From: Escherichia coli
Lineage (GTDB): Bacteria; Pseudomonadota; Gammaproteobacteria; Enterobacterales; Enterobacteriaceae
Assembly (NCBI RefSeq): GCF_044324875.1
Contig: NZ_CP172185.1
DNA: 64,000 nucleotides
Reading direction: 5' to 3' (one strand)
Made by a program: the position numbers. Shown in pieces: positions 9,400-15,300 of this stretch. Numbering within the stretch: position 1 is the first letter of the stretch; the number at the start of each line of letters is the position of its first letter.

Positions 9400-12300
9400 A
9401 GGAAGCCTGGCCCTTACATACCCCGTTTGTGATTGCTCGGGGAAGTCGCAGTGAAGCGCGCGTGGTGGTGGTTGAACTGGAAGAAGAAGGTATTAAAGGC
9501 ACCGGTGAATGCACGCCGTATCCGCGTTATGGAGAAAGTGATGCCTCGGTAATGGCGCAAATTATGAGCGTCGTGCCGCAATTAGAGAAAGGGCTGACAC
9601 GGGAGGAGTTGCAAAAAATTCTCCCTGCCGGTGCAGCACGTAATGCGCTGGATTGTGCATTGTGGGATCTGGCGGCGCGAAAACAGCAGCAATCGCTGGC
9701 TGATTTGATCGGCATAACGCTTCCCGGGACAGTCACCACGGCACAGACGATAGTCATCGGTATGCCTGATCAGATGGCCAATAGTGCATCAACACTCTGG
9801 CAGGCAGGCGCGAAATTACTGAAAATAAAGCTGGATAACCATCTTATCAGTGAGCGGATGGTGGCAATTCGCACAGCTGTGCCCGATGCGACGCTGATCG
9901 TTGATGCAAATGAATCCTGGCGTGCAGAAGGGTTGGCGGCGCGTTGCCAGCTATTGGCGGATTTAGGCGTTGCGATGCTTGAACAACCGCTTCCTGCGCA
10001 GGACGATGCGGCGCTGGAGAATTTTATTCATCCGTTACCGATTTGTGCTGATGAAAGTTGTCATACTCGTAGCAATCTGAAGGCGCTGAAAGGGCGCTAT
10101 GAGATGGTTAACATTAAGCTCGATAAAACGGGTGGCCTGACGGAAGCGCTGGCGCTGGCGACTGAAGCACGTGCACAAGGTTTTAGTCTGATGCTGGGCT
10201 GCATGTTGTGTACCTCTCGTGCCATTAGCGCCGCTTTACCGCTGGTGCCGCAGGTCAGTTTCGCCGATCTTGACGGACCGACCTGGCTGGCGGTAGATGT
10301 GGAACCGGCGCTTCAGTTTACAACGGGCGAATTGCATCTTTAGGATGCCAGCGCAGCAAGTTTGCCATCGCAAAGAGATATTTTTCGCTGGCTTCGTCGG
10401 AGGAGATGGGCGGAAACTCTGCGGTTATGCAATGCAGGTTGAGATCCGCACACCAACTACCGAAAGAGCCAGGTGTTTCATAACCGACGCTGGTTACCAG
10501 AGGCAATTCAAACGCCTGGGCCAGCCATTCGCCTAATTCACTGTGTCTGGGATCTTCAATACAGGCCAGCGGATCGTGGAATGAGACCACCCAGGCGGGT
10601 TGAATGCGGTGTATAAGCTGGCACAGCGCCTGGGTTTCAGGTTCGGAGCCAGGTTTGTCACCTGTCAGCAATACGACATCACGTTCTTCAGCGGCGCTGT
10701 TCCAGCGATAAACGGTTTCACCTTCCTTCCAGTTTGCCGCCGGAAAGTTTCTGTTTAAATCCACACCATTAGCATTGGCCCTTAACCCCAACTGGCAGCC
10801 GTCAGGATTCACACACAGCACCACATGATGACGGCGCAAAGAAGGTGTCAACGTCCGCAGAGCACAGGAGAGCGTGACGATCGAAGAGTTTTCATCACCG
10901 TGAGTGCCAGCCAGAATCAAACCACTTTCGCGGCTGGCTGCAGGGGCAGGAAACCAGATTAACGGCGCGCCCAATAATGAACGTCCGTAATGTTCTGTTC
11001 CGGGCGGAAATGCGCCGCGTTCGGCGCGTGGGCGAGTTACGGTCATGATCGTCTCTGGTTCAGGAAGTATTACAGGCAGTGTTGTGCAAATTTTGCGGAT
11101 TATCAAATCCTTTTCTTCAACGCTATGTCATCGATCTTGTATCACTTTTTTGCCGGAAGTTGTTTGCATTTTCATTGATGTGCAGATATTAGAATTGTCG
11201 TAATGTTATATACATGGCGTATTTTATTCTTACTGGTTCTACACATATTAATCGCATCTGATTGATCAGTTCACCTTAATAAGTTTAATAAATCGTACTG
11301 CACATAGTACAGTACGATGGTGGCTATATAATTGATTTACATGAAGAATGGCTTATCACCATCAGTCCCGGGTTGATTGATGCCTATATTCTCACCAATG
11401 TGTTTCTCAGGTTTATCGATGATATCTGTAATTAATGCTGCGACACTCTTACGTGATACGATCGTACCTTTGAATGGTTCATTGCGTGAGGTAAGCTCAT
11501 AATCAATAATATCTTCATCGGTCAGCCAGGCAGGGCGAAGAATTGTATATTCCAGTCCAGAAGCCTCAATTGCATCCGCAGCCCTGCGGAATGGTTTTAG
11601 GGGTTCACCAATAACTGCATTATTCCATTCGCCAAATTTTCCTGGAACTTCATCATAAATACCGAGGGAAAGAACAAAGATCAGACGTTTAACATCACAG
11701 GCTTTCATCGCAGCGATCACTGAATTTGCCTGAATATCTAAATCTTCCCCCGTAAGGTTGGCATACACAACATCCTGTCCCTGCATGGCCTGCTTCAGTG
11801 CTGCATGATTCAGTACATCCCCCATAATAATCTTGCTATTAGTGGGATAGGGTTTGTGGATTTTTGCTGGCTGACGGGCAAATAAAGTTTGTTTAATGGT
11901 TTGTTTATCTGCCAGTTGATTAATCACATGGCGGGCTATCTGACCGCCAGCACCAAGAATCAGTACATTTTTCATGAAACTTTTCCCAGATTATTGGCAG
12001 CAATATGCCAGGCCATATCACTATTACGGATTTGAATATGTTTCATTACAGAGTTTCCTCAAAGAACGGCGCTAATACTGAAATTGCTTCAGCCACATAG
12101 ACTTTGCCGTCATAAAGATCCATATGGTTTGCGCCTTCAACAATGTGATAGCGTTTATCCTGGCTTGATGCTCGATCGTACAGGTCGTCACTCATCCATT
12201 TGCTCCCTGCCTGGCTGCCCGCCACAATCTGTATCGGCTGAGTCAGGTACACTTCCGCCATATGGTAAGCATCATAGGTAATAATCTGGTTAAGGCTGCG

Positions 12301-15300
12301 CAAAGTAGTGTAACCCGGTGCTGTTGGATACTGCGCGCGAGGGGTGTGGTAATACTCCCAGGCCTGACGCAGTTCTTCGTTCGGCGCATCGGACTCCTTC
12401 ATTGGTGCCAGTGGCATGGTGGCGTATTCTCCGCTGCTAATATCGCTGGTTCGGGCGTTTGAACCCGCGTCAACGTATGGTAGGGCATCAATAGATTTCA
12501 CATTGTTTTCCCAACCATTACGGAACATCGAACCAATATTGACCGCACTAACAGTACCGATGGCCTTGATGCGGCGATCCTGAATTGCAGCATTGGCTGT
12601 ATATCCTGCACCGGCACAAATTCCCATCGCACCAATTCGGCTATTGTCGACATAAGAAAGCGTTGTCAGATAATCAATCACGGCACTGACGTCTTCAGTA
12701 CGAATGTATGGGTTTTCTAACTGACGCGGCTCGCCGCCGCTTTCACCCTGATAAGATGCGTCATAAGCAATAGTGACAAATCCCTTTTCCGCCAGTTTTT
12801 CGGCATAGGTTCCAGCCGTTTGCTCTTTAACGCCCCCACCTGGGTGAGATACCACAATTGCCGGATACTGACGGGTTTCATCAAATTTTGGAGGGAAATA
12901 GATCACTGCAGACAAAGAGATGGTTGGATTATTGCTGTTAGTGAAGCTGACTTTATTATTCATCATTCCGTTCCTCATGGAGTTGTCGGTTCGTTTTGAC
13001 GGTTGGTGATATCACTATAGATATTGATCATTAAGTTGATTAGACCCTAAATAATGATTAGACCTATCATTTAAATGATTAATAGATTGTATGGAGATAC
13101 TGAATGAAGCGTGAAGAAATCGCTGATCTGATGGCGTTTGTCGTCGTTGCAGAGGAGCGTAGCTTCACTCGCGCAGCAGCCCGCCTGAGCATGGCGCAGT
13201 CAGCTTTAAGCCAGATAGTGCGCCGTATAGAAGAACGATTGGGATTGCGGCTTCTGACGCGAACCACGCGCAGCGTTGTACCCACTGAAGCGGGCGAGCA
13301 TCTTTTGTCTGTTCTTGGCCCTATGTTGCATGACATAGATTCTGCCCTGACATCCCTGAGCGATCTGCAGAACCGCCCATCCGGGACAATACGTATTACT
13401 ACTGTAGAACATGCAGCAAAAACGATATTGTTACCAGCTATGCGCACATTCCTGAAATCGCATCCTGAAATTGATATCCAGCTTACCATTGATTATGGTT
13501 TGACCGATGTCGTTTCTGAACGTTTTGATGCAGGCGTCCGTCTGGGTGGGGAGATGGATAAAGATATGATCGCCATTCGAATCGGGCCAGATATACCAAT
13601 GGCTATTGTTGGCTCACCGGATTATTTTTCTCGTCGAAGTGCTCCAACGTCAGTGTCACAATTAATAGATCATCAGGCAATTAATTTGTATCTTCCCACA
13701 TCGGGTACAGCAAATCGCTGGAGATTAATACGCGGTGGACGTGAAGTTCGTGTTCGCATGGAAGGTCAGCTTTTACTGAATACGATAGACCTGATCATTG
13801 ATGCTGCAATTGATGGGCATGGATTGGCGTATCTACCTTATGATCAGGTTGAGCGGGCTATTAAAGAAAAAAACTGATACGTGTTTTGGATAAATTCACA
13901 CCAGATTTACCCGGTTATCACCTGTACTATCCACACCGTCGACATGCTGGCTCGGCATTCTCATTATTTATAGATAGGCTGAAGTATAAAGGTGCTGTTT
14001 AGCACTACTTGCTGATACATTAATTTAATTCTTCTCTTAACGCATTCTCAGTTTCTTTCAACGTTTTGGTTATTTTTTATTCTTCGTACAATGGCGACAG
14101 ATGCTGATTATGATACCGAAAACGGGTTTGAACGTGCGAAGCCCGAACGTAGTGTTCGGAGTTCTATGTGCTTTACCGCATTTTGGAGACTATTATTTAC
14201 ACTAAATCTGATTTGATATATTGATACTTAAAACATTTGATGCTTCCTTTGTCACTTTTTTGATGGAAGTTGTTTGCATTTCTTTAAGGCGAAACAAATA
14301 ATTACGCATCAATTTTAATGTCGGTTAGAGGGAAACTTATGAAGCACTCTGTTTCAGTCACGTGTTGTGCGCTGTTGGTCAGCAGCATTTCTCTTTCGTA
14401 TGCTGCTGAAGTTCCGAGCGGCACAGTACTGGCAGAGAAGCAGGAGCTGGTGCGCCACATTAAAGATGAGCCAGCGTCGCTGGATCCCGCTAAAGCCGTG
14501 GGCCTGCCGGAGATACAGGTCATTCGCGATCTGTTTGAAGGACTGGTGAATCAGAACGAGAAAGGGGAGATTGTCCCCGGCGTTGCGACTCAGTGGAAAA
14601 GTAATGACAACCGTATCTGGACTTTTACCCTGCGCGATAACGCAAAATGGGCGGATGGCACACCGGTAACGGCGCAAGATTTTGTCTACAGCTGGCAACG
14701 TCTGGTGGACCCAAAAACATTGTCGCCATTTGCATGGTTTGCCGCGCTGGCGGGAATCAACAACGCACAGGCGATTATTGATGGTAAAGCCACGCCTGAC
14801 CAGCTTGGCGTCACCGCAGTTGATGCCCATACTTTGAAAATCCAGCTTGATAAACCGTTGCCGTGGTTTGTGAATTTAACCGCTAACTTTGCCTTCTTCC
14901 CGGTGCAAAAAGCCAACGTAGAAAGCAGTAAAGAGTGGACGAAACCCGGAAAACTGATCGGTAATGGCGCTTATGTTCTTAAAGAGCGCGTAGTCAATGA
15001 AAAACTGGTCGTGGTACCGAATACCCATTATTGGGATAACGCCAAAACGGTGCTGCAAAAAGTGACCTTCCTGCCAATTAATCAGGAATCCGCAGCCACT
15101 AAGCGTTATCTCGCGGGGGATATTGATATCACCGAATCCTTCCCGAAAAATATGTATCAGAAGCTGTTGAAGGATATTCCGGGGCAGGTTTATACGCCGC
15201 CGCAGCTCGGGACCTATTATTATGCGTTTAACACGCAAAAAGGGCCGACGGCCGATCAGCGTGTTCGCCTGGCATTAAGTATGACGATAGATCGCCGCCT

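Follow-up and report, generated by a model that had tools for sequence, protein, structure and literature searches.

Direct repeats flanking the ymjC–ycjY–pgrR islet of Escherichia coli as probable attachment-site scars of a lambda-family element in the mpaA–mppA spacer

In a 64,000-nucleotide stretch of Escherichia coli DNA (contig NZ_CP172185.1 of assembly GCF_044324875.1; hereafter the window), two 30-bp direct repeats bracket a small islet that separates the murein-peptide genes mpaA and mppA, and that encodes an SDR oxidoreductase (ymjC), the hydrolase YcjY, and the LysR regulator PgrR (YcjZ). The repeat nearer mpaA (copy A) and the repeat nearer mppA (copy B) arose when insertion of the islet duplicated a target that is present once in genomes lacking it. 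The DNA just inside copy B is homologous to the P arm of the phage lambda attachment site and lies in the same register relative to the repeat as the lambda P arm does to the lambda core. Taken together, the evidence makes it probable that the 30-mers are attL (copy A) and attR (copy B), left by an element with a lambda-family tyrosine integrase that entered a single attB in the mpaA–mppA spacer.

The two copies are identical at 28 of 30 positions and both lie on the plus strand. The pair is unique in the window at up to three mismatches, and no match arose in 100 dinucleotide-preserving shuffles. A repeat search stretches the pair to 37 nt at 86% identity; a longer degenerate duplication or terminal repeats were nevertheless rejected as candidates, since the flanks outside the 30-mer are no more similar to each other than shuffled sequence, and the islet ends, compared in direct and inverted orientation, contain no terminal inverted repeats and show no likeness above shuffles. 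An earlier reading made from the DNA by itself (the sequence-only reading) had described 30-bp repeats of this identity and orientation, enclosing an oxidoreductase, a hydrolase, and a LysR regulator between mpaA and mppA. The repeats are borne out by our scan, and the genes and neighbors by the annotation of a 99.9% identical E. coli record; its position for copy B (14253–14282) is also correct, whereas copy A, given as 11144–11173, actually occupies 11143–11172, one base to the left. A common dispersed motif, which that reading had named as a possible refutation, is not what a genome-wide search shows: either 30-mer occurs once per E. coli genome and seldom twice. Copy A lies 97 bp upstream of the mpaA start codon, and copy B ends 57 bp upstream of that of mppA.

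The arrangement without the islet was sought at mpaA loci taken from one genome per species, with neighboring genes mapped by tblastn. Among non-E. coli Enterobacterales, 29 of 30 loci, plus a Vibrio, have mppA and mpaA adjacent and lack the islet genes. Adjacent, divergent mppA and mpaA occur in E. albertii, two Citrobacter, Enterobacter, Pluralibacter, Pseudocitrobacter, Kluyvera, and Phytobacter, among others, and the same adjacency extends to Erwinia, Pantoea, Serratia, Yersinia, Pectobacterium, and Hafnia; the islet-free gene order is shared by about 25 Enterobacterales genera besides E. albertii, Citrobacter, and Enterobacter. Where the islet is absent the spacer mostly measures 140–200 bp, and a single copy of the motif is present in all four junction-aligned sites and in most of 19 aligned spacers. 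The E. albertii spacer of 182 bp corresponds to 126 bp (11047–11172) plus 56 bp (14283–14338) of the window, and its one copy, CACTTTTTTGCCGGAAGTTATTTGCATTTC, is flanked on the left as copy A is on its left and on the right as copy B is on its right. Because this spacer holds one copy with matching outer flanks, 11173–14252 is an insertion accompanied by a target duplication of ~30 bp.

The empty site also exists within E. coli, in 174 of 5,418 complete genomes (those in which the E. albertii empty-site query was covered in one piece). In one of these, Z0117EC0005, aligning the window flanks gives two matches that share exactly 30 bp, and the single copy, CACTTTTTTGCCGGAAGTTGTTTGCATTTC, is a chimera of the left part of copy A and the last base of copy B. 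The comparison of mpaA–mppA intervals proposed in the sequence-only reading therefore does yield unoccupied sites with one copy, in E. albertii, Citrobacter, Enterobacter, and ~174 E. coli. Together with the lambda P-arm homology at copy B, these sites support the first of its two explanations, namely that the islet was inserted into an ancestral mpaA–mppA divergent promoter region and duplicated the site.

The empty E. coli haplotypes are diverse, and flank trees are star-like, with empty genomes mixed among occupied ones. The closest occupied genomes reach at most 97.7% identity to empties of one type (L084) and at most 98.9% to those of another (L091), scored on half of the query; with these values and the star-like trees, recent precise excision was rejected as the source of the E. 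coli empties. For most of them, either the islet was never present or it was lost long ago. Two empty genomes, 6EVA and wlxctx60, carry a very divergent ~100-bp patch on the mpaA side together with two changes in the 30-mer. This patch has the look of a short stretch recombined in from a distant Escherichia lineage, and suggests replacement by recombination in at least the 6EVA/wlxctx60 lineage. We find it scarcely credible that an islet already present in the ancestor of Enterobacteriaceae was instead deleted repeatedly through recombination of the repeats with each other. Repeat-mediated deletion would restore exactly the single copy that is seen, and the mixing of empty with occupied haplotypes is what repeated loss would give; however, the islet is missing from every one of the 29 sampled non-E. 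coli Enterobacterales with both genes, the cargo has relatives at 79–85% identity on islands of other genera, at sites unrelated to this one, as well as in alpha- and beta-proteobacteria, and the ends of the islet carry phage debris.

A search with the 250-bp islet tail adjoining copy B returned 48.5-kb records and then lambda itself, the match covering 80 bp at 76% identity (E 1e-6 in 2.3 Gb of phage sequence; coordinates in Table 1), with an alignment z of 19.9 and a score reached by 0 of 1000 shuffles. The matched part of the lambda P arm, which carries the Xis, Fis, and IHF H2 sites, has its counterpart in the window ending 6 bp before copy B. The alignment is collinear into the lambda core CAGCTTTTTTATACTAAGTTG with the same 28-nt spacing to the T-run: ATATATTGATA is followed after 28 nt by CTTTTTTATACTAAGTTGGCATT in lambda, and after 28 nt by CTTTTTTGATGGAAGTTGTTTGCATT in the window. 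As annotated in NC_001416, the matched lambda stretch sits between the Int sites ‘int 2’ (27615–27634) and ‘int 3’ (27714–27747), the latter of which includes the recombination core (27724–27738). Read off the alignment, the half-site, 7-bp overlap, and inverted half-site would be TCACTTT-TTTGCCG-GAAGTTG, compared to CAGCTTT-TTTATAC-TAAGTTG in lambda (by itself a non-significant resemblance, z = 1.6), and this core-like arrangement covers the first 21 bases of the repeat plus the preceding T. Copy B is attR-like because it and its left flank follow the order P arm, core, host; copy A would then be host, core, P′, and hence attL-like. The two differences between the copies, CC in copy A and in every empty site versus AT in copy B, fall inside the predicted overlap, and a host-type attL paired with an element-type attR could represent one daughter of a lambda-type heteroduplex.

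A second phage trace abuts the first. A tblastn search identified an internal fragment of queH, with E values of 4e-8 for the window and 2e-10 for L094, one of the fullest E. coli forms of the islet. PGAP labels this stretch a pseudogene fragment; an intact E. coli queH (L114) sits among lambdoid replication and nin-region genes. This 75-bp fragment is the only phage gene sequence within the insert. Against E. coli genomes the islet tail found the islet itself only, and the one weak match listed covers 31 nt of the queH part of the query.

Several results count against assigning the repeats to an integrase. The likeness of the 30-mer to the lambda core carries weight only through its register with the P arm, given the z value quoted above, and in principle the P-arm-like piece could be an unrelated phage scrap. 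Heterology within the overlap would hinder a lambda-type reaction, and a later double mutation is an equally possible origin of the CC/AT difference. No integrase or excisionase gene, nor a recognizable fragment of one, was found in any sampled form of the islet. On the expected P′ side, 11173–11275 has no phage match and aligns to lambda P′ at chance level; this segment is also not homologous to the donor gene cluster described below, and the P′ arm may have diverged or been deleted. A motif search found no arm-type motif common to both arms beyond chance level, and no equivalents of lambda P1 and P2 are recognizable beside the P-arm segment. Finally, the reconstructed attP retrieved only the lambda P-arm match from the phage collection, and two exact-pattern scans of viral contigs found neither the core nor the reconstructed attP.

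A rival is an integrase-free origin, in which a staggered break or transposition-like entry was followed by fill-in repair that copied 30 bp, the lambda scrap being unrelated. Like the duplications made by transposons and insertion sequences, the 30-mers are a target directly duplicated around inserted DNA; the duplication is sharp (29–30 bp of a single-copy target), and the islet has no integrase gene. Transposon target duplications measure 2–14 bp, however, far below 30 bp, and the islet contains neither terminal inverted repeats nor a transposase. In addition, the P-arm homology sits exactly where the arm of an attR is expected and in register with the core, while direct repeats are absent around the cassette where it occurs in other genera. 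We consider this origin unlikely. Less probable still is homology-facilitated illegitimate recombination, whereby homologous recombination in mppA or the motif, together with an illegitimate event just past the resident motif, brought in DNA from a donor carrying islet, motif, and mppA. The AT variant of copy B, which differs from every empty-site copy seen, does look as if it came from elsewhere; yet the sequence to the right of copy B is ordinary for E. coli, the scheme calls for a donor arrangement of which no example was seen and for a join that happens to fall exactly at the motif end, and the in-register P arm is left unexplained. Integration at an attB is the explanation that we prefer.

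Integrating elements are also seen at or near this site. In the complete genome of RM10410, and in an IMG/VR contig, an 11.2-kb capsid-encoding satellite is inserted inside copy B (L124, 6781–17975), with genes for an integrase, an HTH protein, BRO-N, an Icd-like protein, a primase, SSB, and a ClpP-protease/capsid fusion. Its junctions join TGTCACTTTTT to GGATGTAGGG on the left and TACTTCTTC to TTTGATGGAAGTTG on the right, which places the RM10410 crossover within CTTTTT/TTTGATG. In other strains (O121 RM8352, O157, and others) the satellite instead lies at CAGTTTCTTGGATGGAAGGG and disrupts the large terminase subunit gene of a lambdoid prophage; because that is the site it occupies elsewhere, copy B is a look-alike secondary site for it. 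The insertion counts in favor of the att reading, as its junctions demonstrate that the T-run/GATG portion of the 30-mer can be cut and rejoined by a tyrosine recombinase. As a separate observation, the right arm of the satellite (L124, ~17860–17905) holds TTGCTTTTTTATCGCTTAAGCAGG, which resembles the lambda core CAGCTTTTTTATACTAAGTTGG.

A prophage of ~53 kb was found in the empty-site E. coli MFDS1019527, within the signal-peptide codons of mppA at the core TCTCTTTC, where it provides a new 5′ end for mppA; the two regions concerned are 6930–7160 of L002 and 2230–2470 of L098. The candidate placement of this prophage between mpaA and ymjC was rejected, as the genome has an empty site and the prophage lies inside mppA. 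Its position matches that of the mEpimmI phages, which integrate at the start of mppA (PMC11893012). These temperate phages use the same mppA neighborhood as the islet, but their att core lies ~115 bp downstream of copy B and is unrelated to the 30-mer.

The 30-mer also belongs to a conserved regulatory region. A 19-genus alignment of the spacer reveals four conserved blocks, of which the third is the repeat (ATCAayTTTTtg..aAG..TTTGCATTt) and the fourth is GAAACAAATAATTAC. The predicted sigma-70 promoter of mppA consists of TTGCAT (14274–14279), a 17-bp gap, and AATAAT (14297–14302), both elements falling in blocks conserved in the 19 genera; the repeat would cover about –56 to –27 of this promoter. 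A sigma-54 promoter (GG...GC) in the motif was considered and dropped, since the spacing falls short by one base and copy A would face a gene end.

The two copies have fared differently since the insertion. Among 14 occupied E. coli genomes, copy B shows no variation, whereas copy A occurs as six alleles, with a TTGCAT to TTGTAT change, altered T-run lengths, and conversion to the AT form among the differences. Between copy A and the mpaA ATG (11044–11142), the 99 bp contain one variable site across 14 E. coli genomes. In the 12 of the 14 genomes scored for neighboring sequence, the 56 bp to the right of copy B contain one variable site, compared to ten in the 96 bp of islet tail to its left, and the islet tail at copy B falls into two haplogroups ~6% apart. 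On a broader scale, copy B has exact or near-exact matches (28–30 nt) in 4,932 genomes, versus 3,713 for the copy A allele of the window, a count that by our reading also takes in empty sites sharing 29 nt. This asymmetry suggests that the conserved block matters for mppA and not for mpaA.

It also bears on the second explanation of the sequence-only reading, that the repeat would be a shared operator for a regulator of the two murein-peptide genes. The motif is among the four blocks of the mpaA–mppA spacer conserved across Enterobacteriaceae, and both genes retained a copy after the insertion. A shared operator is nonetheless disfavored because copy A varies, even in its –35 hexamer and T-run, whereas copy B does not and the 99 bp between copy A and mpaA have a single variable site; the difference in genome counts points the same way, and the insertion itself accounts for the duplication. 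The known binding target of PgrR, from systematic evolution of ligands by exponential enrichment (SELEX), is the ycjY/pgrR spacer (PMC5934670), and PgrR is autoregulated (PMC10505187). With that target lying elsewhere, the repeat was rejected as a PgrR operator, and we hold a shared operator to be very improbable.

On sequence comparison, the islet genes are foreign cargo. The fullest E. coli islet (3,960–3,978 bp; L093, L094) has pgrR divergent from ycjY, a second hydrolase gene, and the SDR gene, and shares 79% DNA identity with the leading four genes of a cluster of six, in which a LysR gene is divergent from two hydrolase genes, an SDR gene, adh_short, and OYE. This cluster occurs in Citrobacter koseri, Klebsiella aerogenes, and Salmonella amid replicase, AlpA, NikA-like, and defense genes, and in these other genera the cassette has neither flanking direct repeats nor a copy of the motif. 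Since homology to the cluster extends no further than the stop codon of pgrR on one side and the opening bases of adh_short on the other, ~100 bp adjoining copy A and 250 bp adjoining copy B are left as DNA of other origin. Relatives of YcjY with 81–89% identity were found in Pluralibacter, Rhizobium, Sphingobium, and Burkholderia. As a further observation, YcjY is 81–85% identical to proteins of Rhizobium, Mesorhizobium, Sphingobium, Agrobacterium, and Burkholderia, which is unusually high across classes. Such cross-class identity points to wide horizontal spread of the LysR–hydrolase cassette.

Decay of the islet differs by lineage. The window form lacks the second alpha/beta hydrolase gene, which lies between ycjY and the SDR gene in the fullest form, with a loss junction at 11975/11989. 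Its pgrR has a 1-bp deletion in an A8 run (13859–13877) relative to a 99.9% identical strain, giving 257 rather than 299 aa, and pgrR is annotated as frameshifted also in strain 14EC007. Strain EC28 has two further islet deletions. K-12-type strains have lost 11177–11836, a deletion that starts 4 bp past copy A. MG1655 retains both copies (A at 1390695–1390724, B at 1393141–1393170), and NC_000913.3 has no mobile-element annotation at the islet locus. The K-12 ‘ymjC’ open reading frame (b4525; NC_000913.3, 1390680–1390862) was seen to cross copy A, as the K-12 deletion joined an SDR fragment to the repeat.

The history that best accounts for these results would begin after E. coli and E. albertii had diverged, with integration on the E. 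coli side at an attB of lambda-like geometry, its 7-bp spacer lying between the half-sites TCACTTT and GAAGTTG. The element would have brought, or gained later, the foreign cluster of a LysR gene divergent from two hydrolase genes and an SDR gene. Deletions would then have removed int, xis, and all phage genes, leaving the cargo and both cores, together with a portion of the P arm and the queH fragment. Integration would have kept the predicted mppA core promoter intact, in the form of copy B, since the –35 hexamer and the upstream T-tract lie within the shared core. Since the insertion, copy B would have been under purifying selection, and copy A, being without function, would have decayed.

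A wider interpretation, which we advance tentatively and with less confidence than the att assignment itself, is that the 30-mer is a natural attB in the mppA promoter used repeatedly by lambda-family and satellite integrases. The PgrR regulon of peptidoglycan recycling, with PgrR repressing ycjY-ymjDC-mpaA, might then be an accident of a prophage dropping a LysR–hydrolase cluster upstream of mpaA; the CC/AT heterology might have ‘grounded’ the element; and the two copies might constitute a natural experiment in which the conserved block serves mppA only.

Attachment-site scars of an old lambda-like element would be a neat though fairly ordinary piece of genome history, and their closest parallel is a cryptic prophage remnant bounded by the attL and attR of lambda. 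As with lambda (attP 27586–27860, NC_001416), direct core repeats flank the insert, the empty site has a single copy, and the 80 bp inside copy B keep the spacing to a T-run/AAGTTG core. Unlike lambda, the islet lies in the mpaA–mppA spacer rather than between gal and bio, its core is ~29–30 bp rather than 15 bp, it lacks int and xis, P1/P2 and P′ cannot be recognized, and the insert is 3–4 kb of non-phage cargo. The K-12 chromosome contains the cryptic prophage remnants e14, Rac, DLP12, CP4-57, PR-X, and PR-Y; these, too, are decayed integrated elements that keep att-derived repeats and cargo, whereas the islet has no integrase and only its one phage gene fragment. Cis-mobilizable elements (CIMEs) are att-flanked islands without a recombinase of their own. 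The islet resembles them in having its cargo between attL and attR with the integrase absent, and differs in that its P arm is truncated, copy A is mutating, and there is no sign that it can still be mobilized.

We found no published description of the repeat pair as att scars. The att assignment offers an origin for three K-12 genes (ymjC, ycjY, and pgrR) whose interpretation has been shaped by their murein-gene neighborhood; PgrR has been called a regulator of peptidoglycan recycling partly because an operon under its control reads into mpaA. If the islet is prophage cargo, missing from ~3% of E. coli and from all the other genera sampled, the link between PgrR and mpaA would be recent and incidental. 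The same assignment would add an unannotated prophage scar to the K-12 map and identify an attB inside a promoter, and, if true, would provide a natural dissection of a divergent promoter in which the conserved block is needed on the mppA side only.

Table 1. Features of the repeat pair, the islet, and its surroundings in the window
Feature	Positions	Strand	Remarks
Copy A	11143–11172	+	CACTTTTTTGCCGGAAGTTGTTTGCATTTT; read as probable attL-type core (host mpaA side, core, element side)
Copy B	14253–14282	+	CACTTTTTTGATGGAAGTTGTTTGCATTTC; read as probable attR-type core (element P arm, core, host mppA side)
Lambda attP P-arm homologue	14167–14246	+	matches lambda 27637–27716, between ‘int 2’ and ‘int 3’/core
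queH internal fragment	14100–14174	+	aa 79–108 of 221; tblastn
Element-side DNA adjoining copy A	11173–11275		no open reading frame, no lambda P′ similarity; expected place of P′ arm and integrase 3′ end
Ancestral mpaA-proximal spacer part	11047–11142	-	conserved blocks GCAGTGTTGTGCAAA and AATCAAAT; aligns with empty-site spacers of other genera
Ancestral mppA-proximal spacer part	14283–14338	+	predicted –10 AATAAT and conserved block GAAACAAATAATTAC; promoter scan, 19-genus footprint
Cargo block	11276–14003		SDR, ycjY, and pgrR; 79% DNA identity to cluster in Citrobacter koseri, Klebsiella aerogenes, Salmonella
SDR oxidoreductase ymjC	11337–11975	-	
ycjY hydrolase	12046–12966	-	
pgrR/ycjZ LysR regulator	13104–14003	+	frameshifted at ~13866 in the window, open reading frame stop at 13877
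mpaA	10318–11046	-	murein tripeptide amidase; left host neighbor
mppA	14339–15952	+	murein tripeptide binding protein; right host neighbor

From the annotation of the 99.9% identical E. coli record, the gene order across the locus is ycjG, mpaA, SDR (ymjC), ycjY, pgrR/ycjZ, mppA, and ynaI. An Rfam scan of 10800–14500 returned no RNA family. A perfect hairpin, CCGAAC-GTAGT-GTTCGG, occupies 14143–14159 at the boundary between the queH fragment and the P-arm segment and was flagged as terminator-like; lying downstream of pgrR, it may mark the end of the pgrR transcript.

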